Positions 9,390-45,102 of a DNA stretch of 64,000 nt are shown in pieces. A program made the translations under genes and the position numbers. Position 1 is the stretch's first letter, and each line of letters opens with the position of its first letter. This DNA is from Candidatus Roizmanbacteria bacterium CG_4_9_14_0_2_um_filter_38_17 (GTDB lineage: Bacteria; Patescibacteriota; Microgenomatia; GCA-00278855). Below the pieces are notes generated by a model that searched no databases, was not told where the DNA came from, and was given only the letters and a program-made list of their open reading frames with translations. The DNA lies in contig PFSB01000021.1 in assembly GCA_002788855.1 (NCBI GenBank), forward strand, positions 494 through 64,493, written 5' to 3'.

Positions 9390-9415
9390 GCATCAATAAT
9401 AACACTAATCCGTGG

Positions 9416-13585: not shown

Positions 13586-14932
13586 ATGCAGCTTAAACTA
13601 CCAGATTTACCAAGAAAAATTATTAACCAACTGCAACAAGCAGGTTTTGAGTGTTATGCAGTTGGAGGTGGTATCCGTGACTTACTCAGAAGCAAGTCAC
13701 CTACTGACTGGGATTTCACGACCGATGCCACTCCAGAAGAAATTCTTAAAGTTTTTCCTGATGGCTATTATGACAATAAATTTGGTACGGTTGGAATACC
13801 TATGAAAAATTCAATTATTGAGATCACAACCTACCGAACAGAATCTGAATACAAAGACAATCGCCGCCCGGAAAAAGTAGAATGGGGCAAATCTCTTGAG
13901 GAAGATCTCAATCGTCGTGACTTTACCATTAACGCCATTGCCACAAATGGCAAAGAGATCATTGATCCTTTTAACGGTCAATCTGACCTACAAAATAAGC
14001 TTATCCGTGCAGTTGGAGATCCAAATGCCCGGTTTAAAGAAGACGCACTGCGTATGTTGCGGGTAGTCAGACTCGCAACTCAACTTGAATTTTTGGTTGA
14101 GGATAAAACAAGAGATGCGCTTGAAAATGATGTTTCACTTCTTAAGAATATTGCACAAGAACGCGTTCGAGACGAACTGCTACGTCTGTTAAAAGCTGCT
14201 AATCCCGCCGATGGAATTCTCTTGCTTAAGCATACTGGTCTTCTACAGTACATTCTCCCTGAGCTTCTAGAAAGCTTTAAAATTGATCAAAAAAGCCCCG
14301 AGCGTCATCATATTCATGACGTAGGCACCCACTGTGTTGAAGCGCTTCGGTATTGCTCAAATCCTGATCCAGTCATAAGGCTTGCGGTTCTTCTACACGA
14401 TATTGGCAAGACTAAAACTGTAAACAAAGATAAATCTGGCATTACCACTTTTTATAATCATGAAGTTGCTGGAGCAAGTATGGCTAGAGATATATCTATG
14501 CGTCTTAAATTATCTAAAAAACAAACAGGTATGATTATTCGATTAGTGCGCTGGCATCAATTTAGTATGGAGGATACTCTGACAGATAAAGCAGTACGCC
14601 GCTTCATTAGAAACGTAGGACTAGAAAATATTCAAGCTATGCTAGATCTTAGAGTAGCTGATCGCAAAGGAAGCGGGGCCAAAGAAAGCTCCTGGAGATT
14701 CGAGTTATTTAGAAAACGCCTTATTGAAATTCAAAAAACTCCTTTCTCCATTCAGGATCTTAAAGTGGACGGTAACGATATAATAGAGGCTCTTAAAATT
14801 AAACCTTCCCGTCAAGTTGGAGAAATACTCGAAGCAATCTTTGATAAAGTAGACAATGACGAACTCCCTAATGAAAGAGAAAAATTACTGGAACAAATCA
14901 AATCTCTAACACCCACTCCAGGAGTGGGTTGA
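13586..14932 (+). CDS. cca: tRNA nucleotidyltransferase (CCA-adding) / poly(A) polymerase with HD domain
   Basis: GGxVRD and RRDFTINA Pol-beta nucleotidyltransferase motifs. HD domain HHIHDVGTH...LLHDIGK. Start refined to MQLKLPD. Last 7 codons (TPTPGVG*) are encoded by REP-A. Confidence 0.85.
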   Translation: MQLKLPDLPRKIINQLQQAGFECYAVGGGIRDLLRSKSPTDWDFTTDATPEEILKVFPDGYYDNKFGTVGIPMKNSIIEITTYRTESEYKDNRRPEKVEWGKSLEEDLNRRDFTINAIATNGKEIIDPFNGQSDLQNKLIRAVGDPNARFKEDALRMLRVVRLATQLEFLVEDKTRDALENDVSLLKNIAQERVRDELLRLLKAANPADGILLLKHTGLLQYILPELLESFKIDQKSPERHHIHDVGTHCVEALRYCSNPDPVIRLAVLLHDIGKTKTVNKDKSGITTFYNHEVAGASMARDISMRLKLSKKQTGMIIRLVRWHQFSMEDTLTDKAVRRFIRNVGLENIQAMLDLRVADRKGSGAKESSWRFELFRKRLIEIQKTPFSIQDLKVDGNDIIEALKIKPSRQVGEILEAIFDKVDNDELPNEREKLLEQIKSLTPTPGVG

Positions 14933-14946
14933 GTTGACACCTAAGG
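14911..14946 (+). repeat. REP element copy A
   Basis: acccactccaggagtgggttgagttgacacctaagg. Inverted relative to copy B on the other side of the RAYT gene. Confidence 0.8.
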
Positions 14947-14969
14947 AATATTTATAGTATTGTCATATT

Positions 14970-15662
14970 ATGCCTTCACGTAAAATACCTCTCATAACGC
15001 AGGGTATTTACCACATCTTTAATCGTAGTGTAGCTGGACAAACTATATTTAGAAATATAAGAGAATATCAAATATTTTTAGACTTATTAGAATACTACTC
15101 GTTTACCCATGCAAAACACCGCTTTTCTCACTATAGAAGACTCGAAGATGAAACAAAGAAGCAAACGCTCAATAAACTATATCAACAAAGCGATAAACTT
15201 GTAGATATATATTCTTTCTGCATTATGCCAAATCACTATCACTTACTATTAAAGCAACTAACCGATGATGGCATAAGCAAATTTATCAGACAAATCCAAA
15301 ATAGTTATGCCAGATACATCAATATCAAAACACAACGTAATGGAGCCTTACTTCAATCCCCATTTAAATCCGTTTTAATAGAGAATGACGAACAATTTAT
15401 CCATGTAGCAAGATATATTCACCTAAATCCCTTAACATCGTACATTCTAACAAACCAGTCCGAACTAGCTAACCTAGAGTGGTGCTCATATAAAGACTAC
15501 TGCAGTGCAAATAGTAGAGGTTTTGTTAACACATCAAACCTCATGTCCTACTACAATTCAATTGATGAATTAAACAAATTCACCCTAAATCAGGTTGATT
15601 ACCAAAGAGCACTAGCCAAGATAAAACATCTTACACTTGAAAAGTCCTTTCCAAATCCTTAA
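14970..15662 (+). CDS. REP-associated tyrosine transposase (RAYT; IS200/IS605-like Y1 HUH transposase)
   Basis: HUH motif MPNHYHLLL and catalytic-Tyr region ARYIHLNPL. Flanked by inverted REP copies A and B. Confidence 0.8.
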   Translation: MPSRKIPLITQGIYHIFNRSVAGQTIFRNIREYQIFLDLLEYYSFTHAKHRFSHYRRLEDETKKQTLNKLYQQSDKLVDIYSFCIMPNHYHLLLKQLTDDGISKFIRQIQNSYARYINIKTQRNGALLQSPFKSVLIENDEQFIHVARYIHLNPLTSYILTNQSELANLEWCSYKDYCSANSRGFVNTSNLMSYYNSIDELNKFTLNQVDYQRALAKIKHLTLEKSFPNP

Positions 15663-17900: not shown

Positions 17901-18077
17901 TTATTTCTTCCCTATTTGTAACTGTCGAGGATTAGGAAATAGCACCCTAACCTCTGCCTTCTCGATCTCGATTTTAACATCTACTTCATCGCCAGCTCGT
18001 GCACCAATAATCTTGGCAAAGGCAGCTGGAATTACAACCGTTAAACTATTACCTGTTTTAAAAATTTTTTGCTTCAT
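17901..18077 (-). CDS. AbrB/MazE/SpoVT-type swapped-hairpin domain protein (58 aa; absent from ORF track)
   Basis: Hand translation gives MKQKIFKTGNSLTVVIPAAFAKIIGARAGDEVDVKIEIEKAEVRVLFPNPRQLQIGKK*. KTGNSLxVxIP is the AbrB/MazE signature. Ends 2 nt before the secD start codon. Confidence 0.55.
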   Translation of the reverse strand: MKQKIFKTGNSLTVVIPAAFAKIIGARAGDEVDVKIEIEKAEVRVLFPNPRQLQIGKK

Positions 18078-20345: not shown

Positions 20346-20582
20346 ATGAGCAGAAAAACAAGAAAAGAAAAAATTATTGCTGAACTTCATCGTGAACTAA
20401 AAAAGGGCACAGTTTCAGCAACTTCATCGCTCTCTATCTCTTCGCATTCTGTTAAAAAAACTGTTACTAAGCAAATTATACCAGTATCCCCTAAACATGT
20501 AACATCAGACCTTAGAAAAACAGCTATTTTATGTTTCCTTGCGATAGGATTAGAGATATCTCTATACTATTATCTAAGATGA
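20346..20582 (+). CDS. Small hypothetical protein (78 aa) upstream of hydrogenase small subunit
   Basis: ORF only, basic N-terminus and hydrophobic C-terminus. Possibly not real. Confidence 0.25.
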   Translation: MSRKTRKEKIIAELHRELKKGTVSATSSLSISSHSVKKTVTKQIIPVSPKHVTSDLRKTAILCFLAIGLEISLYYYLR

Positions 20583-21082
20583 ATAAACTAGACATAGGAT
20601 GGTTTTCTTTTACATGTTGTGAAGACTCCACGATTATTTTTACCGAACTACTAAATAAACACTATGAGACCTGGAATAAAGTTCTAAACTTTAAACATGT
20701 TCGGGTTCTAAAGCAACAAAACGAAGATGGTCCTTTCGATGTTTCTTTCATTGAGGGAGCCGTCTCGTCAGACAAACAAGCTGTTCGAGTTAAAGAAATA
20801 AGAAGCAAGAGTAAGTACATTGTAGCTATTGGAGCCTGCGGCGTTATGGGAATGCCCTCAAGCCAACGCAATCAATTTACAGATGCTCAAAATGCCGAAA
20901 TCCAATTTTTACTTGACAGATTTAACTATAATGACAAAGTACTAAAAATAGAAGATGTTATTAAAGTGGATTTTAAGGTTCCTGGGTGTCCTATGAATGA
21001 GAAAATATTCTTACAGACAATAGACCAACTTATTAGTAAAATAAGGCTAGACCTTGCACGAAGTGAAAGGTCTAGCCTTTAA
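20579..21082 (+). CDS. [NiFe]-hydrogenase small subunit (minimal, NuoB-like, proximal cluster only)
   Basis: Cys motifs FTCCEDS, AIGACGVMGMPS and VPGCPMN correspond to the proximal Fe-S cluster ligands. Start refined to MNKLDIGW. Adjacent to the large subunit. Confidence 0.7.
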   Translation: MNKLDIGWFSFTCCEDSTIIFTELLNKHYETWNKVLNFKHVRVLKQQNEDGPFDVSFIEGAVSSDKQAVRVKEIRSKSKYIVAIGACGVMGMPSSQRNQFTDAQNAEIQFLLDRFNYNDKVLKIEDVIKVDFKVPGCPMNEKIFLQTIDQLISKIRLDLARSERSSL

Positions 21083-21087
21083 GCATT

Positions 21088-22374
21088 ATGCACCAAGGAA
21101 ATTTCGATCTATCTATAGAAGAAATTAGCAAAATTGAAGGACAAGCTGGGTTGGATATTAAAGTGAGAAGTGGCAAGATTGAAAGTCTTAAATTTAAGAT
21201 AGCTGACTACAAACGCTTCTACACTAAAGCAGTTGAAGGCAAATTAGCGCAAGCTGTCCCACAGCAAGTTGCAAGAATTTGTGGTACCTGTTCTAATGCG
21301 CATCTTCTCTGTTCAATCAAGACGATTGAAAATGCTACAAAGACAGCTCCTTCCAAACAAACCAATAAACTAAGAGAGCTTCTAAATCACGGTCTTATTA
21401 TTCGTGACCACGCCCTGCATCTCTATGTTTTTGTCTTACCAAATTTACTAGGCAAGGATTCTATCTTAGATTTTGATGAGAACAACAAAGAGGAACACGA
21501 ACTACTGCACGACACATTCGATATTAAAGAGGCTGGTAATCTACTGTCTATCTGGGCAGGTGGACGAAGCGTGCATGCACCCTATGCAACACTTGGAGGG
21601 TTTATAAAACTTCCCATGGATCAAACTCATAAGATAGTTGCCCATCTTGAAAAAATTCGCCCTAGAATACTTAAACTAATTAAAATATTCGCAGCAGACA
21701 AAACTAATGTTGAAGAAGATGTAGTATTTGTTGCACTAAATGATCCTAAATTTAATTATCTCTCTGGAGACATAATAACTAGTCAAGGTGGTAAAATTGC
21801 ACCCAATGAGCTTTTTAGTCATCTGACCCATGTAACTATTCCCTACAGCCAAGCCTCAGCTTATTTAATTGGAGAAAAGAAAGTAATGGTTGGAGCACTA
21901 GCCAGGCTTAATCTAAACAAGGATAGCCTCCACCCAAAGACAAAAAAAGACGCTTCAACTGAGCTTGGATTATTTCCTTCCAACAACATTTTTCACAACA
22001 ATCTTGCTCAAGCTATTGAAATATTACACTCCATAGACACCGCTCTTGATTTATTAAACAATATTCAGATTACTCAAGAAAAACCAGTTGTAATAAACAA
22101 TAAGGCTGGAATAGGCACTGGTGTAATAGAAGCTCCTCGAGGATTATTATTCCATCAATATGAGATAACTGAAGATGGAAAAGTCCAGAGCGCAAAAATT
22201 GTAGTTCCCACGGGATTGAATCAGATACTCATCGAACAAAGTTTAAAAACCTACCTTGAAACGAAACTGGATTTATCTAAAGATAAAATTGCTCTTGAAG
22301 CGGAAAAACTGATACGTGCCTACGATCCTTGCATCTCTTGCGCCTCCCACTTTTTGAGACTAAAATGGCTATAA
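21088..22374 (+). CDS. [NiFe]-hydrogenase large (catalytic) subunit
   Basis: N-terminal RICGTCSNAH (RxCGxCxxxH) and C-terminal DPCISCASH (DPCxxCxxH) Ni-Fe ligand motifs. Confidence 0.85.
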   Translation: MHQGNFDLSIEEISKIEGQAGLDIKVRSGKIESLKFKIADYKRFYTKAVEGKLAQAVPQQVARICGTCSNAHLLCSIKTIENATKTAPSKQTNKLRELLNHGLIIRDHALHLYVFVLPNLLGKDSILDFDENNKEEHELLHDTFDIKEAGNLLSIWAGGRSVHAPYATLGGFIKLPMDQTHKIVAHLEKIRPRILKLIKIFAADKTNVEEDVVFVALNDPKFNYLSGDIITSQGGKIAPNELFSHLTHVTIPYSQASAYLIGEKKVMVGALARLNLNKDSLHPKTKKDASTELGLFPSNNIFHNNLAQAIEILHSIDTALDLLNNIQITQEKPVVINNKAGIGTGVIEAPRGLLFHQYEITEDGKVQSAKIVVPTGLNQILIEQSLKTYLETKLDLSKDKIALEAEKLIRAYDPCISCASHFLRLKWL

Positions 22375-22437
22375 GTTACTTTTCCAACATGCACATGCCA
22401 ATAGGCCTACAGCGTGGGATATTTCCCCCCGGGCAGA

Positions 22438-22460
22438 TTCTAAACCCCCGGGGTTTAGAA
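22438..22460. terminator. GC-rich palindrome between convergent hydrogenase large subunit and maturation protease genes
   Basis: ttctaaaccccc/ggggtttagaa has 11-bp arms. Overlaps the protease stop codon and lacks a clean T-run, so terminator function is tentative. Confidence 0.4.
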
Positions 22461-22844
22461 AAGAGCATATTTAAGCACTAAATCTACTACTTGATCAATT
22501 AACTCCTTAGTCAAACCTAATTTAGGGATACCTATTATCATCAGCTTTTTTGGCAACTTACCAAGCTTTTTTAGTAGCTGTAGATGCAAGAAAAGATCAT
22601 AGTCATGCACAGACACAGCCTTATTCTGAACAAACGCGTCTAAGTTATCATATACCTTAACCTTATCTATCCCTAAAACTGTATCTATAATAACCAAGGG
22701 TAACTCTGAATCCGGAGTAAAGTTTTCGGTGGGATCTACCAGAATAAACTCATAGGATGGTAATCTCTTTTCAAGCTCTGGGATCAGGGCCACAGCCGCC
22801 CCGTCTTCCTTAACTAAAGTGTTCCCTAGTACGTATATCTTCAT
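22455..22844 (-). CDS. Hydrogenase maturation endopeptidase (HycI/HyaD/HoxW family)
   Basis: IYVLGNTLVKEDGAAVALIPEL matches the GN..xDDG.G motif. ~130 aa size typical. Confidence 0.7.
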   Translation of the reverse strand: MKIYVLGNTLVKEDGAAVALIPELEKRLPSYEFILVDPTENFTPDSELPLVIIDTVLGIDKVKVYDNLDAFVQNKAVSVHDYDLFLHLQLLKKLGKLPKKLMIIGIPKLGLTKELIDQVVDLVLKYALF

Positions 22845-23547
22845 TAGCTAATTTTATAGCTATGTTAGTATAATAAACTAAATTTCCAACATCAATATCT
22901 GTTAATTTTTCACACAGTACTCCCCAATGAAATGACACTAAATCACCTTTCTTAATTTCATCCGTACTATACGAAACAATATGTTTTTTTGGTTCGGAAA
23001 GCTTTAGTGAAACAGAGTCGTACTCCAGTCTCGGGGAAACAACTTCAAGCTCAGATCTTTTTACTTTTGTTACTTTACCCCAGCTTATTCTACACTGATC
23101 CAGTGTATCCAACGTGTGCTCTATTGGTAAGTGACCCGTCCGCCAGGGAACATTTAAAACATGGAAAGAGTGGTTAGGCAAAGCTCCTTGAGGAAGCTTA
23201 CCAAATAACTGCTCGAGCTCAGAGCGCTTTAACCTCTTTTTAAGATTAAGAGTATCTCGAAGGTGATAATAAAATCGGTTGATATCTAGATTGTGTAAGA
23301 GCTTATTACCTATCCAGTATGCTTTTACCACCTCTAAATCAAACTGATCAAAAATATTATTTTCACCAGCTATATATGATAAATAACTAAAAAGTGTCTG
23401 ATATTGTGTTAGGTGGTTTTTAACTGAGGCATCTACTATTTTAGCTCTCTGATAGTGCTTTATATTTTCCCAATCCGGACCACAAAAAGACAAGGAATTA
23501 GGAGGAGTACTGTAACAAATACAGGTTGAAAGTCCAAGCATCGACAC
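22810..23547 (-). CDS. Hypothetical protein in hydrogenase maturation neighbourhood
   Basis: 245-aa ORF with no motif I recognise. Lies between hypC/EamA and the maturation protease. Confidence 0.45.
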   Translation of the reverse strand: MSMLGLSTCICYSTPPNSLSFCGPDWENIKHYQRAKIVDASVKNHLTQYQTLFSYLSYIAGENNIFDQFDLEVVKAYWIGNKLLHNLDINRFYYHLRDTLNLKKRLKRSELEQLFGKLPQGALPNHSFHVLNVPWRTGHLPIEHTLDTLDQCRISWGKVTKVKRSELEVVSPRLEYDSVSLKLSEPKKHIVSYSTDEIKKGDLVSFHWGVLCEKLTDIDVGNLVYYTNIAIKLANEDIRTREHFS

Positions 23548-23549
23548 GT

Positions 23550-24479
23550 TTAAAGGCTCAGCCTTTTATGAAATAGATGGCTTAGCCTTAGCTTCGGCAA
23601 AGAAATATATCTTGAAAAAACTATTATAAATAGTACCCCCAAGACCACAAATCCACCAGACAAAAGCTGATCGGAAGCTATTGTTTGTGTAATAAATATT
23701 CCGGACAAAATACTTGTAATTAATGTAGCTGGAACCAGAAGCGCACTCACCAAGGTGGCGGGTGCCAAAGACAGCGCAGCATACCAAGTTAGTACATAAA
23801 GAAACAGCGTTGTAGCTCCAACTATCACAGTAAGTATTTGGGGTTGAGATAACCCAATAAACATACTTCCTTTACCCAAAACAAGAGTGGTCAGAGAAAT
23901 TACAACTGCACCAATACTCATCCTTACCCACGCTACAACGAGAGCTGGAACACGTTTTAGTACTAATTTTGCTATTACATTCTCAACTGCCCAGAATAAA
24001 GTTGCTCCTAAGATCATCAGCTCCCCTGTACCCAGTTTAAAATCTCCGCCTTTAAATAGAAGAAGATTACCCCACAAGACAACTGTATAACCTAGCATCT
24101 GCTTGAAAGATAGCTTCTCTTTAAGAAAGAAAATAGCCAGAAAAGCTACCCAAATATAGAGAGATTTATGAATTAAGGACGCAGAAAGAGCCGATGTTTG
24201 GGTAAGACCAACAAAAAAAAGGATAAATGGAATACTTCCGCCAAGCAAGCCAATAAATAGTAACTTTATTTTATCCCCTTTACCGTAGGTCCCCAAGACT
24301 CCCAATCCATAGCGTTTTGCAACTATAGCGGTTAACACCAAAGCAACGATACCTACTCTTAAAGACGTATGAATAAATGGATCTGAAACAGTTACACCTA
24401 TTTTGGCAACAAAGTTAGCAAATCCTGAAATAACAGCTGTTAAAAGCGCCAAGGCAATACCGTTCTGGACTTTACTCAT
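23550..24479 (-). CDS. EamA/DMT-family permease
   Basis: Ten predicted TM helices in two EamA-like halves. Confidence 0.7.
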   Translation of the reverse strand: MSKVQNGIALALLTAVISGFANFVAKIGVTVSDPFIHTSLRVGIVALVLTAIVAKRYGLGVLGTYGKGDKIKLLFIGLLGGSIPFILFFVGLTQTSALSASLIHKSLYIWVAFLAIFFLKEKLSFKQMLGYTVVLWGNLLLFKGGDFKLGTGELMILGATLFWAVENVIAKLVLKRVPALVVAWVRMSIGAVVISLTTLVLGKGSMFIGLSQPQILTVIVGATTLFLYVLTWYAALSLAPATLVSALLVPATLITSILSGIFITQTIASDQLLSGGFVVLGVLFIIVFSRYISLPKLRLSHLFHKRLSL

Positions 24480-24500
24480 TTTTAGAATTATACACTATAC

Positions 24501-24692
24501 TTAAATAAGTGCTTTTCGCATTTTAATAGCTACCTTATAATCTATAATGGACACAACCATATTCCCATACGGAAGTACAAAATCTCCTGGCTTGATAGAT
24601 ATATTACCCTTGAATACCAACTTCCTATCTCCTTCAACAACCACAGAGTCTCCATCTACAGATAGCACTTTACGAGGTACTTGTAGGCACAT
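24501..24692 (-). CDS. hypC: Hydrogenase assembly chaperone HypC/HupF
   Basis: Canonical N-terminus MCLQVP (MC[LI][AG][IV]P) and 63-aa length. Confidence 0.75.
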   Translation of the reverse strand: MCLQVPRKVLSVDGDSVVVEGDRKLVFKGNISIKPGDFVLPYGNMVVSIIDYKVAIKMRKALI

Positions 24693-25982
24693 TTAATTGC
24701 TCCCCACTATAATCTCTATGTCTGCTTTGTCATCTGCATCCAGAAAATCCTCACTAGTTAATACATCTTCCAGATTTTCTAAAACTAAATCAAGCTCTGT
24801 ATTGTTGCCTTCCTTATAACGAATTTCGGTCGTATCGTAATCAAAAAAAGAGGCATTGCCTACTTCAATCACCTCAAATTTTGCCTCTTCAAGTATATTT
24901 TTATACCTGCCAGCTTCCCCTGGGATGCCTGATCCATTTAAGACACGTACCTTAATATCTTGAGCTTTCATAATAACTGCTGTTGGCTCCGGTCGAGACG
25001 TAGGCAAAGTACTAGTAGAGCTGTCTATAGGTATAGTATTATTTGGTTTTTGTTGCAAAAAAGATACTCCTCTCATAATAAGCACAACTGTTAGACCAGC
25101 AACTACTAATCCTAAGAAAATTCCCTTCCAGGGCGGGCTCACGCGAGCTAAACGAATTTTAATACTTTTTTGCGGTTTATGATTTATGTCTAATAACTCA
25201 CTATCTTTTGACACTAGCACCGCTGCAAGAATGGCAACTCGTTCATGCATATCTTGAATATTAGAAATATCCTGCTTCTGACTGTGAGAAAGACGCTCCA
25301 GCGATTTAACTCCATCGTTAAGCCTAATTTTCGTCTGTTCTTCGAATAGTTTTTGATCAAAACTCAAACTACGTTTACCAAAATACACTCCTTGTCTGCA
25401 ATATTCCTGTTCTTTAATAAACTTCTGCACTGTAGGAATAAGTTCTTCATTTGCTATAGCTAAGGGATAAGTTTTTACGGGACCATATTTATCCAGTAAG
25501 TAAATCTGAGTAAATTTTTCTCCTATATGTAGAATTAATTGAGTTTCTTCGGGGGTGATCCCTGCTTCTACAATTCTATATATAGCTAACTGCTCGGGTA
25601 ACAGTCCAGAAATTTTACAGCTGCGAGAATCAAATTTAGCTAACACGCTATCCAATTTATCTTTCTGAACAATAACCACCAGCGTCTCTTTATGTTTATC
25701 GCTATCAACTTCAACTAAAGATATATATATTGCCAGCTTCCTAATATCCAAACTTAGATCATCTATCAAGGTAGAAACCTTTTTATCTACAATGGAGTTA
25801 TCGGTATCTTGTAATCGTTCGCAAATCGAAAGCGTAGGTGAAGAAACTAAAATTACTTTTTTTAAACCAGCTAAACTATCTGGAAGATTATTAAATTCGA
25901 TAACTGACTTACCAAAAGGATTAGTCGAGAGAATAACTCCAACGAAGTCACCATAAATATTTTGAACTGCAGTTTTTTTCAT
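24693..25982 (-). CDS. Pilus-cluster protein: cytoplasmic N-domain, one TM helix, C-terminal LytR_C domain
   Basis: C-terminal IKVRVLNGSGIPGEAGRYKNILEEAKFEVIEVGNA is a LytR_C signature. TM at GIFLGLVVAGLTVVLIM. N-domain PilM/FtsA-like by context only. Confidence 0.5.
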   Translation of the reverse strand: MKKTAVQNIYGDFVGVILSTNPFGKSVIEFNNLPDSLAGLKKVILVSSPTLSICERLQDTDNSIVDKKVSTLIDDLSLDIRKLAIYISLVEVDSDKHKETLVVIVQKDKLDSVLAKFDSRSCKISGLLPEQLAIYRIVEAGITPEETQLILHIGEKFTQIYLLDKYGPVKTYPLAIANEELIPTVQKFIKEQEYCRQGVYFGKRSLSFDQKLFEEQTKIRLNDGVKSLERLSHSQKQDISNIQDMHERVAILAAVLVSKDSELLDINHKPQKSIKIRLARVSPPWKGIFLGLVVAGLTVVLIMRGVSFLQQKPNNTIPIDSSTSTLPTSRPEPTAVIMKAQDIKVRVLNGSGIPGEAGRYKNILEEAKFEVIEVGNASFFDYDTTEIRYKEGNNTELDLVLENLEDVLTSEDFLDADDKADIEIIVGSN

Positions 25983-26039
25983 AGTTCTATGTTTTTAGTT
26001 TATCATAACCAACAGGTCTTAATTGTCACACACAAAAAC

Positions 26040-26065
26040 CACCCTATATAATACTATATAGGGTG
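26040..26065 (-). terminator. Rho-independent terminator downstream of major pilin gene
   Basis: caccctatata-atac-tatatagggtg is a perfect 11-bp stem. On the minus strand it is followed by tttttgtgtgtg. Confidence 0.7.
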
Positions 26066-26121
26066 GGTCAGCTTATTAAACAAATAATTCTCTGCTCTTT
26101 AACCCCACCAGAAACAGAGAA

Positions 26122-26538
26122 TTATCTCGTTACAGTAATCGTCGTGGCTAATTCGCCAGTAGCTGAAGCAGTAACTCTGTTACCGTTCAGGAAAATTACA
26201 TACTGAGTGTCTGTTGGCGTGCCAGTTGATGGGTCACTTGGAATCTCAGGTATATAGTCTGGGACTAAATCGTCACTTAAATTAATAGTTGAACCTGTTC
26301 CATCACCAATATTTGTTGGTGTTGCCGTAATATCAGTTGGGAATGTGCCATTATTTTCGACCGAATACTGATACACAGCATTAACCATCTGGTAAACGTC
26401 ATTTCTCCGCTGAGTATCTCGGGCAGCCGCAAACTGTCTTCCTGGATTAACAGCCACAAGTGCAATAGCCGCCAGTATCGCAATGATACCCATGACTACT
26501 AACAACTCGATAAGTGTAAAACCTTTATTTCTCTTCAT
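26122..26538 (-). CDS. Type IV (pre)pilin, major pilin candidate
   Basis: Class III signal peptide MKRNKG/FTLIELLVVMGIIAILAAIAL with Glu+5. Confidence 0.85.
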   Translation of the reverse strand: MKRNKGFTLIELLVVMGIIAILAAIALVAVNPGRQFAAARDTQRRNDVYQMVNAVYQYSVENNGTFPTDITATPTNIGDGTGSTINLSDDLVPDYIPEIPSDPSTGTPTDTQYVIFLNGNRVTASATGELATTITVTR

Positions 26539-26560
26539 ATTATTATCTTCACCTCCTCTC

Positions 26561-27133
26561 CTATAGATTGGACAAATCCTGTCCGATAATAACTACCATA
26601 TCAGATTCTATCTCTTCAGGCAAGTCCACTATATTTACATCTTCTGTAGTTAACCCGAAAACCTCTATTACCTGATCTTCATATAATCTAACCGACAATT
26701 TACGTCGGAGCTGTGTAACCTTAAGATCTGCTTCCGGAGAACTAGCAACCTGGTGACTGTTAGTAAATCCAGACAGTCTTAGCCTATCTGCTATGGCTGA
26801 GGCTAAACCAGTCTCGGTAGTACCATTTAGAACCTCAATTGCAAGATCAGACTTTTTCACCTCCGATACAGCAGGCATCACTAATTGTTGTTTTTGCTGT
26901 TGTTTCCACAGTTCAGCTAAGCCAACTGCCTCAAGCAAATCTTCGTCTTTAATATCTAACGTTGACACACTAGCTGAGGCCTTTTCGCTCTTAGTAAATG
27001 CTTCAGATATACCACGATATACCACAACACCCACAACGACCAAAAACAACACCGCAAAAACAACACTTCCAGCACTTAGCAAGTGGTATAGATTAAACTT
27101 TTCTTTGTTAAAAATTTTCAGAAACATAAACAT
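26561..27133 (-). CDS. Membrane-anchored LytR_C domain protein
   Basis: N-terminal TM helix. LAIEVLNGTTETGLASAIADRLRLSGF is a LytR_C motif. Confidence 0.55.
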   Translation of the reverse strand: MFMFLKIFNKEKFNLYHLLSAGSVVFAVLFLVVVGVVVYRGISEAFTKSEKASASVSTLDIKDEDLLEAVGLAELWKQQQKQQLVMPAVSEVKKSDLAIEVLNGTTETGLASAIADRLRLSGFTNSHQVASSPEADLKVTQLRRKLSVRLYEDQVIEVFGLTTEDVNIVDLPEEIESDMVVIIGQDLSNL

Positions 27134-27671
27134 TCCCTCTAATTATATACGTTCCTGACCCTTCAATGCCACTTAAGCTTTTAGCCTCAATACTGGTTAT
27201 AGCTGTTAAATATGGCATATTTTCATAACTTTCCAGAAAACCTAATAGACTATCTATTTCTCCTGTAAAGCTAATGGTAAACGGTAAATAAGGATAACCA
27301 CTTCTATCTTTTAATGTTGATTGAGTCCCAAAGTTAAATTCTGGGCTACTTCCATACAAGCTCCCTAAATTTTCAACTACATCAACAAATTTAATAATAG
27401 AGCGTTCATCAGGATACAGCTCTAGTATCTTTTGATCTTCTCCTTGGTATTTTTCCAGCAACCCCGTGGCTATTTCTTTTTTATTCAATAGCGCTTTTGT
27501 TTGATCATGTACAGTTTTAGCACTCTGCACATCTTTCGCCTGTCTCAGCAATAGCGCAATAGATAACACAGTTCCCAACACCAAAAATAGACTTATGTAC
27601 ACACCTCGTTTAAGGACTGCTTTCACCCTCAGCACATTATTCGCTGTCAAATTTGTTGTACTATTATTCAC
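27108..27671 (-). CDS. Type IV pilus assembly protein PilO-like
   Basis: Single TM helix followed by a coiled-coil and ferredoxin-like periplasmic domain. Position downstream of pilMN. Confidence 0.5.
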   Translation of the reverse strand: MNNSTTNLTANNVLRVKAVLKRGVYISLFLVLGTVLSIALLLRQAKDVQSAKTVHDQTKALLNKKEIATGLLEKYQGEDQKILELYPDERSIIKFVDVVENLGSLYGSSPEFNFGTQSTLKDRSGYPYLPFTISFTGEIDSLLGFLESYENMPYLTAITSIEAKSLSGIEGSGTYIIRGNVYVSENF

Positions 27672-29133
27672 TTAATTTCACTTTAATACTGAATAAAAAA
27701 TTGTTTTTTCTTTCCAAATTCTCTAATGGAATTATTGCAACTCCAAACATGTCATTTTCTTCAATTTTCTGTTGGTACTTTAACAACTGATCACGCGATG
27801 TAGCTACTCCATCAATCAAAATCAATTTTTCATCAATAATATAGCGCCAGGAATTAATAGTTATCCCATTAACCGACAGCTCAGGAAAAACTTTTAAGAA
27901 CTGTTGTGGGGAAGTTTTTAATTTAGAGAGAATTAATAATTTATCCACTTCCATATTAATTTTACGCAATTGAACCTCGGTAGAATCAGCACCTTCTTGC
28001 ACGATGATCTCTCCAAGCTGATTTGTAGCCAAAAGCTCCGGAGGTGTATTGGCAACCAGAGAACGTGCTTGGAAAAATAAAAATAAATAACTACTAATTG
28101 CAAGCAATAGACCCGTAGATAATATACCAACCACAGATCTTTCCCAGTGCTTAATTCGCTCAACATTCTCAGAACTTTCATAATACTTTTCTACTAGTTT
28201 AGGAATAAGATTGATTGTCTGATCTGATGCTGGAGGTTTAATAGGAGACAATCCAATCGAAATAGCTTCTGAAAATGCTAGCATTTTATGCTTATCTGCC
28301 AGCTTTATTGGCCCTTCCAGGTAATCTACTTTAGTATTAAGCTCTTTTTTAAGACTCGCCTTAATTTCGTCATCTGCTTTTACTCCAGTCAACCATATAT
28401 GCTCAAGCTTAAATTCATCAAGATTTTTCGCATTATAAAAATTCAATAGTCTTTGAATCGTATCTAAAGCGCATATGGATACATCTTTACCTTCTGCATA
28501 TTCATCGGTTGCGGTTAGCTTAGTTACTCTCCCTTTAACCAAAGTTGAAGTAATTCCCCCATCGCTCAAGTTAACCAAGGCTTGTAGCTTGTTCCCCTTA
28601 GAGGGCAATAGTCTCCCTAGACATGTTGCAGATGTTTGAATATTAACTGGGCGCAAACCTATACTAGTAACAATGCTCACAAGATCATCTACGAGACGCT
28701 TAGGTAATGCAACTACAAATATCTCTTTTTCATCTTGTTCACCAGGGAGCACTTTCCAATCCAGATACATTTCATCAAGCGGTAGCGGGAAAATATTTTT
28801 TGCTTGCCACTTTACCGCTTCTTCAATTTCTGCATCTGATATATTAGGAAAAGAAAGCTCTCTGGTTAAAGCATACTTCTCAGGTAATGAAATAGAAACA
28901 CAGGAAGCTTTCTTTTTACTTTTACCAATCAACTCGCGGAGTGTTTTTTTAAATAAATCTGGGTTAATAATTTTGCCTCCGTTTAAGATATGTCCATCTA
29001 TTGGCTGCTCTACCAAAGCAGAAATTTGTCTTTTATTTAAGTCGATAACAACAGACCTAAGCACAGTATCTCCAACTGCTAAACCAACACAACGATCACA
29101 GGTATATCCTGACATATTTACATCATATACCAA
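27664..29133 (-). CDS. Type IV pilus assembly PilM-PilN fusion protein
   Basis: N-terminal actin-like PilM ATPase fold (~330 aa), then TM helix ILSTGLLLAISSYLFLFF and a PilN-like periplasmic tail. Confidence 0.65.
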   Translation of the reverse strand: MVYDVNMSGYTCDRCVGLAVGDTVLRSVVIDLNKRQISALVEQPIDGHILNGGKIINPDLFKKTLRELIGKSKKKASCVSISLPEKYALTRELSFPNISDAEIEEAVKWQAKNIFPLPLDEMYLDWKVLPGEQDEKEIFVVALPKRLVDDLVSIVTSIGLRPVNIQTSATCLGRLLPSKGNKLQALVNLSDGGITSTLVKGRVTKLTATDEYAEGKDVSICALDTIQRLLNFYNAKNLDEFKLEHIWLTGVKADDEIKASLKKELNTKVDYLEGPIKLADKHKMLAFSEAISIGLSPIKPPASDQTINLIPKLVEKYYESSENVERIKHWERSVVGILSTGLLLAISSYLFLFFQARSLVANTPPELLATNQLGEIIVQEGADSTEVQLRKINMEVDKLLILSKLKTSPQQFLKVFPELSVNGITINSWRYIIDEKLILIDGVATSRDQLLKYQQKIEENDMFGVAIIPLENLERKNNFLFSIKVKLSE

Positions 29134-29348
29134 TAGCCCGCAAAATCACAAGATATTAATGAACTGGGAGCTGAGCATTAAATAGTCATTCGCTTTCGTC
29201 CAATAAAAAATATCATAGTTGATATGATAAGAGTTAGAGTTGCCACAATTAGAGACTATAGTCCCTCTATAAGAGATTCATATCCATCTCTAGGCTCAAA
29301 TAAAGGCTCTATTGCCACATAGAAAATGAAACCCTATAAATTCTAAAT

Positions 29349-29373
29349 GTGTCAAACGTCCAGCGTTTGACAC
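29349..29373. repeat. Perfect 10-bp-stem hairpin (gtgtcaaacg-tccag-cgtttgacac) adjacent to REP-C
   Basis: Shares the gtgtcaa/ttgacac half-site with the REP tail. Confidence 0.6.
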
Positions 29374-29394
29374 AGAAATAACTACTATATATAC

Positions 29395-29430
29395 AACCCA
29401 CTCCTGGAGTGGATTGAGTTGACACCTAGG
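29395..29430 (+). repeat. REP element copy C
   Basis: aacccactcctggagtggattgagttgacacctagg. Confidence 0.8.
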
Positions 29431-29524
29431 GATATCCATATCCCATACTCTATGTAGAAAAAAGTCTGATTAATATTAGAGAGCTTATTTGCAATCCCAT
29501 AAAAGGTCCAGCCTTTTATACTTC

Positions 29525-30895
29525 TTACTCCTCGTCCCATTTAATAAACTCGTACTCTGAGGATGTAGGAAAATAAGGAGGTGGACCATAACGAAGATGA
29601 CTGTCATATGTAATATCCCTATCAACAAAACCTGACCAAATTGGATTACCATAATTCCAGTACGACTTCTGATTGGAAATAACCGAACCATAAATCTCTA
29701 ACTTATCACGTATTGCGTTTGAATAATAACTACACACCCACCAATAGCTATAGAAGTGACGAATAATTCTGCCTTTCTGCGCCATTAAAGCTGCATCAAT
29801 CTGGAAAGTACTTGGAATATCCAATGCGTAATATATATCTTGTTGGGCAACTAATCCTAATGAATCTGACCCATCTTTTTCCTTATATATTAAATTGTCC
29901 AATATCCAGATCACTTCAGAGGAAGTATCTATCGGAAAAGATGCAGCCACAACTGTGGTTTTACCTTCCACAACTCCATCAATCCAGACTGTGTCTTCAA
30001 CAAAAATAATCTTATTATCACTTAGGCTATATGTTCCTATTAAGTTCTCTGTACGAATAACCTGATTTAATGTCTGACATCCTCCCTCTGGATCCCATCC
30101 CTGTCTTGATCTTGTACGATTAACCTCATAAACACTAACCGTTCCAGTATCATTAAAGCGTAAATGATAACCAAAATAAGAGGACGCAGCCAGGTATATG
30201 CCACTCTCTTGGGCAGATAGGCGCATATGGGCAAAATCTACCACCACACTATCAAAATCTATAGAAGTTGTGGGGTATTCCCACAGTGTATTATTAGGAC
30301 CATCTCCCCATACACCGTTCTTTGTATCAGATGGGCTACAGCCTGTCTCAAATCCACAGGTATAGGTCTCCTTAGCACTTGATACAACTGACTCATTAAT
30401 ACCATCCATACGAATTCCACCATTAGAGTGAACATCACCGTAAGTCGTAAGGCCTTGCCCGAACCATACATTAGCATTATGCAAAAAAGAAAACCTTGCG
30501 TATGACGGCTGACCATAGGCAGCTTCGATAGTCCGTTTAGCATTAGGCTCCTCCAAAGTCCAACCAGTCGAGACAATTGTAACGACACTTGACCCTTCCC
30601 CTGGTGGTATCACATCCAGCTCAAACTGGCCGATTTGATCTCCCTGTGGATCAAAATAATCATGTATATATGGACCAGGTTCTCCAGTACCATCCTGAAA
30701 GTCTTCTGGAGCATGCGCTAAATGCCAGCGATAATAGTTTGCTCCAGCCTCTGCTATATTAGTAGCCATCTGTCTATTCTCCTGGCGCACCCAACCCTTT
30801 ACATGCACTGCCGTTACTGCCACTAAACTACCTAAAATAATCACAGATAAAGTAGCGACTAATAATACAAGAATTGTAACAGATCCAACTTTCAT
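29525..30895 (-). CDS. Large N-terminally anchored pilus-associated protein (function unknown)
   Basis: Single N-terminal TM/pilin-like hydrophobic segment then a ~430 aa extracytoplasmic domain. 4-bp overlap with the upstream minor pilin. Confidence 0.45.
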   Translation of the reverse strand: MKVGSVTILVLLVATLSVIILGSLVAVTAVHVKGWVRQENRQMATNIAEAGANYYRWHLAHAPEDFQDGTGEPGPYIHDYFDPQGDQIGQFELDVIPPGEGSSVVTIVSTGWTLEEPNAKRTIEAAYGQPSYARFSFLHNANVWFGQGLTTYGDVHSNGGIRMDGINESVVSSAKETYTCGFETGCSPSDTKNGVWGDGPNNTLWEYPTTSIDFDSVVVDFAHMRLSAQESGIYLAASSYFGYHLRFNDTGTVSVYEVNRTRSRQGWDPEGGCQTLNQVIRTENLIGTYSLSDNKIIFVEDTVWIDGVVEGKTTVVAASFPIDTSSEVIWILDNLIYKEKDGSDSLGLVAQQDIYYALDIPSTFQIDAALMAQKGRIIRHFYSYWWVCSYYSNAIRDKLEIYGSVISNQKSYWNYGNPIWSGFVDRDITYDSHLRYGPPPYFPTSSEYEFIKWDEE

Positions 30896-31542
30896 AAATT
30901 TGTTTTTAAGTTTCTCAACTGTACCCCCGAACTAAGCTCAGCATTCTGCGGAGCTCTACCTGGATTCACATTTACAATCAAAAACACCCGCATATACTTA
31001 GTATCTATTAATCTAAATTGTGTATCTAGTGGGTTTCCAGCACCTTTAAGCGGCCAGTCTCCATTGTAATAGTAAAAAATTGGCGCACTCCCACTCTGGA
31101 TATACTCTGCTACAACCCGGGTTGCTTCATCTTCTACTAGATACAAAACTGGTATATCATCAGTAGGGTTAATCGTTCCCTTCATCAAACTTGTGTTATC
31201 AAGATAATACCTCACCCTCTCAACACGATCATCGTTATCTACATCCGCATAAAATATAAATTCCTGGTCGTCAGCCAACTCTATTGTATAGCCTCCATCT
31301 TCAGCTGGCTGTGCTTCACGAATTTCCTTAACCATAACATCTATTCCACCACGCGCTTCTTCTACTGCTTGAATTTCAGCAAACGAAAAGCTATAGGATT
31401 CAGCAACAAATCGTTGCACTCCAGCAAGCGCAATTAAGACAACTGTGCTTATAAAGCCAGCAATTATTACTTCAAGTAATCCAAATCCTTTATTAAGGGC
31501 TCTACTTTTGATTAAGAATGATGGTTGTAAATACATCTTCAT
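30892..31542 (-). CDS. Minor pilin / pseudopilin (prepilin-type N-terminus)
   Basis: KGFGLLEVIIAGFISTVVLIALAG is a prepilin cleavage/methylation motif (G|F...E+5). Confidence 0.65.
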   Translation of the reverse strand: MKMYLQPSFLIKSRALNKGFGLLEVIIAGFISTVVLIALAGVQRFVAESYSFSFAEIQAVEEARGGIDVMVKEIREAQPAEDGGYTIELADDQEFIFYADVDNDDRVERVRYYLDNTSLMKGTINPTDDIPVLYLVEDEATRVVAEYIQSGSAPIFYYYNGDWPLKGAGNPLDTQFRLIDTKYMRVFLIVNVNPGRAPQNAELSSGVQLRNLKTNL

Positions 31543-32881
31543 TTATCTGGATTGAAGAGGTTGCATCTTCATATCCTGTTAAAGAAATAGTTAACTCATA
31601 GGCAGCTGCGTTTAGAGAATTAAAGAAAGCATGACCAAAATCTGGATCACCCTCATCACCTGATTCGATCGTTTCATCATAAGACAATAAACCATTAATA
31701 AGTCTAGCAGTTGAACTTGAAAGTGGAACATCTCCGCTATCTGCTACTAATACCAATAAACTACCGTCGCCCGGGCTATCAGGCGCTAAGCTGAGATCTA
31801 TACTCAGTTGTTCGTCAGCATTCAATCCGATGGGAAGCGCAGGATTACTTCCTGCCAAATCATAAGAAACATCAACTACTTCAAACATATAACTATCAAA
31901 TTCCATATTAGAGAAAGTATAAGTACCACCTGCATTTGTCGAAACTAACTCATCAAATTTATATATAGGAGATTCCGTCTCATCATTTCCAATTATTTTT
32001 TCTCCTCTGACTCTAAGCTCCACATTTGTTAATGTAGGAAAACCAGCTAAACGAGATCCATAGGTCTTAACTGTCAATGTAGATACTTTATCGATTGCGA
32101 AGCTAGCTTCAGAAACTTGCCCTTCCAACACAGTTATATGAGATTTAGAGGAATTAGTAACTTCCTCTGCGCCATAGGTACGATCAGACGAGTATCCAGC
32201 TTTAGTTACTATAATTTCATAACTTTCAATTGCGCTAGGTGCACCAGGTAAGATAACGCGACCAAACGAATCAGAAGTTATCGTTAAGTCCACTTGAGGA
32301 TTAACTGTTGAATTAACAATATTCACGTCTGCACCATTTAAGGGGTTTCCTTCTGAATTAAAGACTAACAGAGAGAGCGTTCCACCTCCATCATTTGTCT
32401 CGATCTCTTTTGGAACAATATCAGTTACTAAAACTACTGGCCTACGGCCCGATGCAAATGCCCCTGCCCACTCAAGTTTAACGCGGACTCGCTTATAATC
32501 CGTATTTACCAAATCAGCCGGCGCTTCCCCATCAAATGGATCGTCTACGTACGCAATTGTTGTTGTCACTTCAAATATAATTCCCCCTAAGGAAACTTGC
32601 TCAATTGGCGCAATTGGTCCAGCTGGGATACCTCCAACTGTTCCTAGATCCTCGTAACTAAGGTTTCTGGCTTCCTCTATCTTTTCATTTGCAAGTAGCC
32701 TCGCCGTATGTCGAACACGAGTCTGTCCGATGCTTTCAAAAACTAGCTGGGTGATTCCAAATAAACTGCCAGTTACAATCAAAAAAATTGCCATCCCCAC
32801 AACGGCCTCAATAATAGTAAACCCATTCCAGGAATGTGCTTCACATTCCTGGAATGGGTGCTTGTTGCTCATATTTATCAC
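31502..32881 (-). CDS. Large minor pilin (PilV/FimT-like) with extended leader
   Basis: Motif ...HSWNG|FTIIEAVVGMAIFLIV. The 24-aa leader contains the in-frame palindromic insert (FQECEAHSWN). Confidence 0.6.
   Translation of the reverse strand: MINMSNKHPFQECEAHSWNGFTIIEAVVGMAIFLIVTGSLFGITQLVFESIGQTRVRHTARLLANEKIEEARNLSYEDLGTVGGIPAGPIAPIEQVSLGGIIFEVTTTIAYVDDPFDGEAPADLVNTDYKRVRVKLEWAGAFASGRRPVVLVTDIVPKEIETNDGGGTLSLLVFNSEGNPLNGADVNIVNSTVNPQVDLTITSDSFGRVILPGAPSAIESYEIIVTKAGYSSDRTYGAEEVTNSSKSHITVLEGQVSEASFAIDKVSTLTVKTYGSRLAGFPTLTNVELRVRGEKIIGNDETESPIYKFDELVSTNAGGTYTFSNMEFDSYMFEVVDVSYDLAGSNPALPIGLNADEQLSIDLSLAPDSPGDGSLLVLVADSGDVPLSSSTARLINGLLSYDETIESGDEGDPDFGHAFFNSLNAAAYELTISLTGYEDATSSIQINEDVFTTIILNQK
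32823..32859. repeat. Perfect 17-bp inverted repeat with 3-nt loop (cccattccaggaatgtg-ctt-cacattcctggaatggg), intragenic
   Basis: Read from sequence. Second copy of the same element family at 53809..53843. Confidence 0.9.
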
Positions 32882-34083: not shown

Positions 34084-34088
34084 CTTTT

Positions 34089-35771: not shown

Positions 35772-35815
35772 AGTAAAACTATCTTATCAAAACAGGATGA
35801 AAATTGCGAGAAAAA

Positions 35816-39708: not shown

Positions 39709-39718
39709 AGAACCATTA

Positions 39719-41801: not shown

Positions 41802-41804
41802 AAT

Positions 41805-44978: not shown

Positions 44979-45066
44979 TAATATATTGGGCTCACAATAA
45001 TCCCATAAGTTTAACAGTTTTAGTGCGTATCGTCAACGTTTTTTCCAACTGCTTGGACAATATTAT

Positions 45067-45102
45067 AACCCACTCCTGGAGTGGGTTAGGTTGACACCTC
45101 GG
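45067..45102 (+). repeat. REP element copy D
   Basis: aacccactcctggagtgggttaggttgacacctcgg; overlaps last 4 codons of pyrD (..EVST*). Confidence 0.8.

Follow-up and report, generated by a model that had tools for sequence, protein, structure and literature searches.

A 64,000-nucleotide stretch of DNA from Candidatus Roizmanbacteria bacterium CG_4_9_14_0_2_um_filter_38_17 (contig PFSB01000021.1, positions 494 to 64,493; hereafter, the window) encodes, at positions 20346-24692, a two-subunit [NiFe]-hydrogenase and a set of convergent accessory genes. We find that this hydrogenase is a member of the published hyd2 clade of the candidate phyla radiation (CPR). It is not new as an object. The best overall explanation, which we consider reasonably likely, is a soluble hyd2 enzyme with a single iron-sulfur cluster, coupled to ferredoxin, that evolves H2 or works reversibly and has its own maturation operon. 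Relative to the published hyd2, what is new is the conserved accessory operon, the linkage statistics for a ferredoxin and its reductase, and the case for a maturation module built from an uncharacterised protein, DUF6390, and an importer.

The CPR hydrogenases related to group 3b were divided into hyd1 and hyd2 by Jaffe et al. 2020 (BMC Biol 18:69; PMC7304191). According to the passages of that paper on these enzymes, hyd1 has beta and gamma subunits. By comparison, hyd2 forms a long branch next to 3b, has a truncated small subunit (mean 164 amino acids; aa) and lacks proximal beta and gamma genes. It has a hypC-like neighbour and, in a subset of loci, a PF07992 flavoprotein and an Fe-S protein nearby. 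Roizmanbacteria carry most hyd2 genes in that data set, and the authors state that 'its function remains uncertain'. The host of the window is itself a Candidatus Roizmanbacteria (CPR/Microgenomates), and the locus differs from hyd2 in nothing essential: the small subunit (HydS) has 167 aa, no beta or gamma gene adjoins it and a HypC-like gene is close by. A rough neighbour-joining tree, which is ours and not that of Jaffe et al., places the large subunit (HydL) inside a clade apart from hyd1 and canonical 3b. HydL is 100% identical to a protein of the Candidatus Roizmanbacteria CG22_combo metagenome-assembled genome, and the contigs that encode it are up to 134.8 kb long. Its relatives at 45-85% identity number hundreds, in Microgenomates and Parcubacteria, and identity to hyd1-like and 3b sequences is 30-36%. 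A sequence-only reading of the window, made before any database search, had left the redox partner open. This was correct, although the puzzle is not new, since hyd2 was published in 2020. Note that the neighbourhood plots of Jaffe et al. cover same-strand families only. The convergent operon of protease, DUF6390, EamA and HypC is not described in the portions of that paper dealing with hyd2, nor are the tandem-cysteine motif of HydS and the HypC-like domain of DUF6390.

The same tree puts loci L106, L130 and L141/L142 within or at the base of the hyd2 clade. In L106:1-6565, a hyd2-type hydrogenase (49% identity, 176-aa small subunit) lies beside HypF, the closest relatives of which are DPANN, Bathyarchaeia and other archaeal proteins. 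Since this HypF is archaeal, the hyd2 type is apparently common to CPR bacteria and ultra-small archaea. On a bacterial contig of 66% GC, L130:40-2155 encodes both hyd2-type subunits together with the protease. Hence, the clade extends beyond low-GC CPR genomes.

HydL retains every Ni-Fe ligand, the proton-acceptor glutamate and the active-site arginine. As the sequence-only reading had it, both ligand motifs are complete, and the ligands are invariant in an alignment of 27 clade members (invariant positions are E17, R63-C65-G66-T67-C68, P350-R351-G352 and D413-P414-C415..C418). A C-terminal extension of 7 residues follows His421. HydS has exactly four cysteines (C13, C14, C87 and C137) and none beyond residue 150, in agreement with the earlier claim that only proximal-cluster ligands are present. 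A tandem-cysteine motif, TCCEDS, stands where CxxC would be expected. HydS aligns to residues 2-148 of the 261-aa delta subunit of P. furiosus SHI, and then ends. The motifs (S/T)C[C/S]ED[S/N], GxC and GCP occur in about 40 hyd2 small subunits, with zero cysteines past residue 150, while in the hyd1-like small subunits of CPR, CxxC is preserved and there are 8-11 additional cysteines. We conclude that hydS and hydL encode a cytosolic heterodimer, in which HydS is the flavodoxin-like domain alone, with one predicted (proximal) [4Fe-4S] cluster bound via CCED, GxC and GCP. Four hyd2 small subunits (L074, L028, L079 and L037) have CSEDS instead of CCEDS. Hence, the proximal cluster does not strictly need the second tandem cysteine, and its fourth ligand may be serine, glutamate or aspartate.

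HydS shares several features with NuoB/Nqo6 of complex I: the Oxidored_q6 family, a single [4Fe-4S] cluster, an adjacent CC motif and a similar length. In T. thermophilus complex I structures, tandem cysteines ligate cluster N2 of this subunit. However, the match of NuoB to HydS is limited to the C-terminal ~40 residues, and similarity to 3b delta subunits is far higher overall. Furthermore, the partner of NuoB is NuoD, whereas that of HydS is a true Ni-Fe large subunit.

Two sets of loci provided the comparative context. The first was centred on DUF6390, the family of the 245-aa protein encoded in the cassette. A DUF6390 alignment, searched against one genome per species, gave at least 589 positive genomes. 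The best 80 loci were taken with 10-kb flanks and analysed by tblastn and de novo clustering of open reading frames (ORFs); counts are over 81 loci. There are 45 hyd2-type loci, with a large subunit at least 44% identical to that of the window, and 17 hyd1-like loci, mostly from CPR with beta and gamma (L073 and L085 are non-CPR and 3b-like). The other 19, mostly short contigs, are without a 3b-type large subunit. Several of these are Chloroflexota loci with a group-1h-like cluster (NifU-Rieske, DUF5947, DUF6084, protease, HypA, HypB and DUF6390). The second set came from a metagenome scan with a hyd2 large-subunit alignment, and so was unbiased for DUF6390. It comprises 62 hyd2-type and 18 canonical-3b loci. 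Among the 26 hyd2 loci having at least 4 kb downstream, over which genes were counted, the protease is present in 26, EamA in 18, DUF6390 in 17, ferredoxin in 6, a Pyr_redox_2 reductase in 6 and beta in 0. The 18 canonical-3b loci have beta and gamma, no DUF6390 and no EamA, with hypA/B/D/E/F in 3-4 cases. Protease, DUF6390 and EamA thus travel with hyd2, which is a new observation.

The sequence-only reading found neither partner subunits nor hypABDEF in the window, and pointed to the adjoining DNA as a place where they might lie. We used precomputed Pfam calls on identical contigs, which cover window 1-31.6 kb and ~36.6-64 kb, ~6.4 kb upstream and 10 kb downstream. These calls list housekeeping genes, a type IV pilus cluster and a ribosomal protein operon. 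They include no HypA/B/D/E/F, diaphorase, cytochrome b, ferredoxin or Ech/Mbh-type subunit, in the window or in either flank. The segment at ~31.6-36.6 kb, which is without Pfam calls, was covered by tblastn and a regular-expression search for Fe-S motifs. No match in the window was obtained by tblastn with representative ferredoxin, ferredoxin reductase, beta, gamma and HypA-like proteins, or with E. coli HypA-F. The Fe-S motif search of the whole window was empty, and no homologue of NuoF, NuoE/F/G or HydA was found there.

One alternative is that the window holds a normal NAD(P)H-linked (sulf)hydrogenase of group 3b, the beta and gamma subunits of which are encoded elsewhere in the genome. 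The best solved relatives of HydL are 3b enzymes (5yxy, 5.6e-59; 9nez, 5e-58), aligned over the full length and ahead of 3c, 3a and 3d. Like P. furiosus SHI and T. kodakarensis Hyh, the window enzyme has RxCGxC, DPCxxCxxH and a short C-terminal extension. Hence its large subunit has both the similarity and the two Ni-Fe cysteine pairs of a 3b enzyme. It scores only ~230 bits with the NCBIfam ShyA/HydA equivalog models (233 vs 700), about a third of the cut-offs of 700-880. Group 3b enzymes are alpha-beta-gamma-delta tetramers, with a three-cluster delta subunit and CxxC as the first ligand motif. In contrast, no beta/gamma diaphorase is co-encoded in the window, the delta subunit is cut after the proximal-cluster domain and the first motif is CC(E)D. 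Since neither the tetramer nor the three-cluster delta was found, the enzyme should not be filed as group 3b. Jaffe et al., where they discuss hyd2, left open that such subunits are encoded elsewhere (PMC7304191), and gamma-like FAD/NAD flavoproteins do lie within 10 kb in 4 of the 26 hyd2 loci. However, the medial and distal clusters that link the small subunit to beta are missing from every hyd2 small subunit. Beta itself occurs in none of the hyd2 loci (0/45 in the genome set and 0/62 in the metagenome set), compared with 16/17 hyd1-like loci, and is absent from the window and its flanks. We therefore regard an ordinary 3b enzyme as quite unlikely.

The comparative context points instead to a soluble ferredoxin carrier, with an NAD(P)H:ferredoxin reductase in about a quarter of loci. 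The flavoprotein linked to hyd2 has 414 aa and matches Pyr_redox_2 (8.6e-58) and Reductase_C (3.6e-8), which is the architecture of ferredoxin/rubredoxin reductases. The linked ferredoxin is a single-cluster protein of 70-120 aa (Fer4_15/Fer4_13, 2.3e-12). The reductase is confined to hyd2 loci, being present in 10/45 of the genome set but in 0/17 hyd1-like loci, and recurs in the metagenome loci at 6/26 and 7/30 (~23%). Usually, the two genes are contiguous with hydS and directly upstream of it. In L096, for example, ferredoxin (8040-8252), reductase (8261-9475), hydS (9508-9957) and hydL (from 10001) are separated by gaps of 9, 33 and 44 nt. Jaffe et al. noted this pair, as families fam013 and fam390 (PMC7304191). 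We conclude that this ferredoxin and the NAD(P)H:ferredoxin-reductase-type flavoprotein are the best candidate partners of hyd2.

Electrons would then pass directly between the proximal cluster of HydS and a dissociable carrier, because medial and distal clusters are lacking, as is a beta/gamma diaphorase. The carrier would most likely be the small ferredoxin, with one [4Fe-4S] cluster, as the direct partner of HydS. Together, ferredoxin and reductase would be a 'split', dissociable replacement of the 3b diaphorase, in which electrons flow from NAD(P)H to FAD, then to ferredoxin, the proximal cluster and Ni-Fe. In this Roizmanbacteria, the carrier genes would be unlinked, and the enzyme would most likely vent fermentative reductant as H2, reversibly.

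The accessory genes are listed, with the rest of the cassette, in Table 1. Our ORF calls agree with the cassette coordinates and the layout given in the sequence-only reading, in which hypC and a HycI-type protease gene are convergent to hydSL and separated by EamA and the 245-aa gene. These four minus-strand genes form a tightly packed operon. It would be the maturation side of the system, with HypC and protease acting as in other [NiFe] enzymes. The protease scores 23.7 bits with PF01750 (HycI; cut-off 23), while TIGR00072 is below cut-off. Across 49 family members, its residues D14, D54 and H80 do not vary, and their aligned counterparts in E. coli HycI are D16, D62 and H90. The family match and the three metal-binding residues are those of a HycI/HybD protease. 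Hence the C-terminal extension of HydL is predicted to be removed by a HycI-type endopeptidase that is dedicated to this locus and the metal triad of which is intact. The HypC-like ORF is slightly under the PF01455 cut-off (27.0 bits vs 28.5), and the histidine of the canonical VHVGFA stretch is replaced (GDFVLPYGNMV). Related loci have a HypC gene in the same place, upstream of EamA (HupF_HypC 1.3e-16 for a representative). The EamA gene adjoins DUF6390, on the same strand, in 60/81 loci, and so the permease is genetically coupled to DUF6390. Invariant residues of the EamA family are E121, E166, R186 and K105; no histidine or cysteine is conserved. A role for EamA as a channel for free Ni2+ is weakened by this absence.

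Table 1. Genes of the hydrogenase cassette and DUF6390 fusion proteins with their gene context. Cassette positions refer to the window. For the fusions, the numbers after the locus identifier give the fused gene (L174, L175) or the region that includes its neighbours (L172, L176-L178).
Feature	Position	Strand	Family matches, motifs or context
78-aa ORF	20346-20582	+	basic N-terminus and C-terminal hydrophobic helix; without Pfam/NCBIfam family
HydS, truncated small subunit, 167 aa	20579-21082	+	Oxidored_q6 1.4e-19
HydL, large subunit, 428 aa	21088-22374	+	NiFeSe_Hases 2e-25; RICGTC and DPCISCASH
HycI/HybD-type maturation endopeptidase, 129 aa	22455-22844	-	HycI 4.7e-5; TIGR00072 5.9e-7
DUF6390 protein, 245 aa	22810-23547	-	PF19927 1e-47
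EamA/DMT permease, 309 aa	23550-24479	-	EamA 1e-29
HypC-like ORF, 63 aa	24501-24692	-	HupF_HypC 5.2e-6; TIGR00074 2.1e-5; N-terminus MCL
EamA-DUF6390 fusion, 563 aa (Kerfeldbacteria, two independent assemblies)	L174:8001-9692; L175:139-1830		protease, hyd2; Nramp upstream
GntR-DUF6390 fusion	L172:1468-12499		Fbp-like ABC transporter; hydrogenase 8 kb away
ArsR-like-DUF6390 fusion	L176:2259-12312		MFS, NicO, hydrogenase, HycI, HypA
PadR-DUF6390 fusion	L177:1346-7135		SBP_bac_5 ABC transporter; no hydrogenase on the 8-kb contig
XRE-DUF6390 fusion	L178:122-15321		HypC, two Nik/Opp-type ABC systems, NifU-Rieske, HycI, large subunit

The 245-aa protein matches PF19927 over residues 12-238 with 163 bits (cut-off 25). 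A profile search of 1.84 billion representatives gave at least 1,423 DUF6390 clusters at 50% identity, and our literature search found no paper mentioning the family. An AlphaFold2 model (pLDDT 87, pTM 0.88) has a helical N-domain (1-150), a beta-barrel (~152-215) and then a long helix. With Foldseek, the N-domain alone had no counterpart in the PDB (E > 5). The full model gave weak OB-fold matches to S17 and HypC (3vys_A, 2z1c_B), with E 0.01-0.1. Aligned with CPR HypC by hhalign, the C-domain gave a probability of 96% and P 4.6e-9, with C152 on HypC Cys2 and H207 on the conserved HypC histidine. Note that a Pfam scan of the C-domain alone gave no HupF_HypC match; the relation is visible profile-to-profile only. 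The C-terminal part (~152-215) is thus like HypC/HupF/HybG in being an OB barrel with matching, invariant Cys152 and His207. However, the HypC cysteine is N-terminal, whereas that of DUF6390 is internal and follows a 150-residue helical domain of unknown fold, and DUF6390 co-occurs with a separate HypC gene. Furthermore, some DUF6390 proteins are fused to permease or helix-turn-helix (HTH) domains, and we know of no HypC with such fusions. Of 128 full-length representatives, 126-128 share C22, H126, C152 and H207, and the conservation of H129 and W208 is nearly as high. These residues make up a putative Cys2His2 set spread across both domains.

Two candidate accessory factors had been named in the sequence-only reading, which also proposed a co-occurrence analysis of the 245-aa ORF. 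For that ORF, the suggestion holds: it is strongly linked to hydrogenases, with a [NiFe] large subunit near 62/81 DUF6390 loci, beside its presence in the 17 hyd2 metagenome loci counted above. The neighbouring hydrogenases are of hyd2, hyd1-like, other 3b-like and group-1h-like kinds. In the two non-CPR loci, L073 and L085, the gene order is hypC, DUF6390, hypA, hypB. In L082:846-10699 (Chloroflexia), DUF6390 ends a group-1h-like cluster of small and large subunits, NifU-Rieske, DUF5947, DUF6084, protease, HypA and HypB, and is followed by a gene for an SBP_bac_5 solute-binding protein. Context was fetched for five DUF6390 fusions (Table 1). Each has importer genes as neighbours, and in all but the PadR case the contig also carries [NiFe] hydrogenase genes. 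The HTH-DUF6390 fusions look like an undescribed family of metal-responsive regulators. DUF6390 was also considered as an analogue of HypD. This was dropped, because it is without HypD motifs, its N-domain is all-helical and the HTH fusions suggest ligand or metal binding.

We conclude that DUF6390 is very probably a hydrogenase accessory factor. Its conserved residues suggest that it is probably a metal chaperone or sensor, nickel being the most likely metal, dedicated to hydrogenase biogenesis. The CPR form is a stand-alone protein coupled to an EamA permease. In the maturation operon, DUF6390 would bind the metal at its Cys2His2 site, dock via the HypC-like domain and pass the metal to HydL, and the EamA permease would supply the ligand to DUF6390. 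More tentatively, DUF6390 and an importer (EamA in CPR; Nik/Opp-type ABC, Fbp-like ABC or MFS elsewhere) could be an unrecognised but widespread maturation module for [NiFe]-hydrogenases. Such a module would combine Cys2His2 metal binding with HypC-like docking and load the large subunit. The HTH fusions would regulate the importer, and the module may replace HypA/HypB in CPR. In the most radical version, it may substitute for part of the HypCDEF pathway.

The distribution of other hyp genes bears on this proposal. Neither HypD nor HypE was found within 10 kb of the ~60 hydrogenase-bearing DUF6390 loci or of any CPR-type hyd2 locus. Both are present in 3/18 canonical-3b loci of the metagenome set. 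The literature that we searched offered no usable information about Hyp genes in CPR/Patescibacteria. Two candidate cases of canonical HypDEF in hyd2 organisms were set aside. The HypF beside the L106 hydrogenase turned out to be DPANN/Bathyarchaeia-like. The HypC and HypD of L141/L142 belong to a NuoF/[FeFe]-type relative of unknown taxonomy.

Several observations weigh against a ferredoxin-coupled enzyme with a dedicated maturation operon. No ferredoxin or reductase gene was found in the window or its flanks. Hence, the partner in this genome is extrapolated from the ~23% of relatives that have the pair nearby. In L042 and L060, the pair lies upstream of EamA-DUF6390 and not of hydS, so it could serve maturation rather than catalysis. 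H2 evolution driven by NAD(P)H is thermodynamically uphill. The gamma-like flavoproteins described above count here too. On the maturation side, no canonical HypD, HypE or HypF turned up close to any CPR hydrogenase locus. Metal binding by DUF6390 is suggested by conservation and context only. The invariant residues of EamA are acidic or basic, which suits organic or chelated substrates better than free Ni2+. We regard a substrate of this kind as no less likely than the free ion. Two further sets of loci belong on this side of the balance and suggest other electron-transfer routes.

The first is L141:5562-13566, with the near-identical L142, a low-GC contig. It encodes a large subunit 45% identical to that of the window and a small subunit of 154 aa. 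Directly upstream lie genes for a NuoF-like protein and for an [FeFe]-HydA-like protein of 565 aa (Fe_hyd_lg_C, together with 2Fe-2S and 4Fe-4S domains), and the genes on the downstream side encode a radical-SAM protein, protease, HypC and HypD. This arrangement resembles A. mobile NiFe-HydABCSL (PDB 7t2r) and the hybrid or bifurcating complexes, among which are the archaeal [FeFe]/[NiFe] hybrids of groups 3f/3g (Greening et al. 2024, PMC11216029). Accordingly, the HydSL core might dock into a flavin-based bifurcating or hybrid complex containing NuoF-like and NuoG/[FeFe]-HydA-like proteins. The small subunit of A. mobile is likewise short (179 aa, 7t2r_E) and passes electrons straight to the Fe-S chain of another protein, and L141/L142 group with hyd2 in the tree, either within that clade or at its base. 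However, HydL matches 7t2r_D (1.4e-31) far more weakly than it does the 3b structures. The context is found in just one organism among ~110 hyd2-type loci, and the NuoE/F/G or HydA-like genes of such complexes are absent from all CPR hyd2 loci as well as from the window. We consider docking into such a complex very unlikely for the window enzyme.

The second set involves thiol-redox genes. In L094:7843-9516, a thioredoxin gene overlaps the start of hydS, with a DsbD-type membrane protein upstream. In L004:4176-7434 and 14036-15093 (Gottesmanbacteria), thioredoxins, DsbD, glutaredoxin, VKOR and DsbA surround hyd2, and clusters of Grx, DsbA-like and TrxR genes recur near CPR hydrogenases. Electrons from H2 might thus go to thiol/disulfide or sulfur chemistry (thioredoxin, DsbD, glutaredoxin or polysulfide) rather than to ferredoxin. 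The sulfhydrogenase activity of 3b enzymes, for which the hydrogenase passages of Jaffe et al. cite literature (PMC7304191), agrees with this route. However, thiol-redox neighbours occur in 2-3/45 hyd2 loci, and so are rarer than the ferredoxin-reductase pair in the same set. No thiol-redox gene adjoins the window cassette. To our knowledge, direct transfer from the [4Fe-4S] cluster of a hydrogenase small subunit to thioredoxin has no precedent. A thiol or sulfur route is therefore unlikely. Since neighbours differ among hyd2-clade loci, the single-cluster HydSL core looks like a module that is combined with varied electron-transfer partners.

The minimal subunit composition, and the absence of HypD/E/F nearby, could also be read to mean that the enzyme is a regulatory hydrogenase, which senses H2, or a relic without function. 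A Crp-family regulator gene is divergent to hydS in L004. However, the neighbourhood of hyd2 has no conserved partner of the kinase, PAS or GGDEF type, and the suggestion of H2 sensing in the sequence-only reading found no support. The window enzyme also differs from group 2b/2c regulatory hydrogenases, with no conserved signalling gene and with both a C-terminal extension and a dedicated protease. That reading had further asked whether the enzyme might be degenerate. It is not, because E17, C65, C68, R351, C415 and C418 of HydL, and the metal triad of the protease, are invariant. All other catalytic and ligand residues are likewise invariant in a large, diverse clade, and practically all loci still have HypC and the dedicated protease. 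A sensor or relic is highly improbable. The locus is a complete, selectively maintained copy of hyd2, and a single-cluster enzyme coupled to ferredoxin remains our preferred explanation.

The 78-aa ORF, the other proposed accessory factor, fared differently. Its homologues (63% and 45% identity, ends conserved) are found only in L170 and L171, which are syntenic Roizmanbacteria-like loci, and in L171 another gene lies between it and hydS. It is absent from the other hyd2 loci (0/45 and 0/62). A general role as a hydrogenase accessory factor was therefore rejected; it is probably a lineage-specific small protein and not part of the hydrogenase system. Its sole tie to the hydrogenase is that its stop overlaps the hydS start (ATGA) in this genome. 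Homologues support that start, ATG 20579, over an upstream in-frame start that would give a 183-aa small subunit. A scan for promoters and terminators around the cassette gave nothing above chance level.

Other genes flank the cassette. A LytR_C-domain protein (429 aa) is encoded immediately upstream of hypC, with no intergenic gap, and has the same position in L170 and L171. It is followed by a long type IV pilus/pseudopilin cluster (N_methyl pilin, PilM_2 and others); both lie in window 24693-36000 (-). Just upstream of the cassette, a Y1_Tnp (IS200/REP-type) tyrosine transposase gene (window 14970-15662, +) and a gene for a 58-aa MazE-like antitoxin (window 17901-18077, -) flank SecDF genes. 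Window 37561-46237 (-) contains a gene group unusual for CPR: a HisKA_7TM histidine kinase, a nitroreductase-like protein, a ThiF-family protein, a family-less 497-aa protein, an aromatic amino-acid ammonia-lyase and a dihydroorotate-dehydrogenase-family protein. This group may be a small biosynthetic or modification cluster.

In many CPR genomes, hyd2 is one of few energy or redox enzymes, and its partner decides whether H2 is made or consumed by these symbionts. The comparative data make the question left open in 2020 testable, with HydSL, a specific ferredoxin and a flavoprotein reductase. Few if any natural [NiFe]-hydrogenases would be smaller than a heterodimer with one Fe-S cluster, which makes it attractive for biochemistry and engineering. 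If DUF6390 were confirmed as a metal-handling protein, it would be an extra component of the well-studied Hyp maturation scheme, and its role would explain how the cofactor is assembled in genome-reduced organisms.

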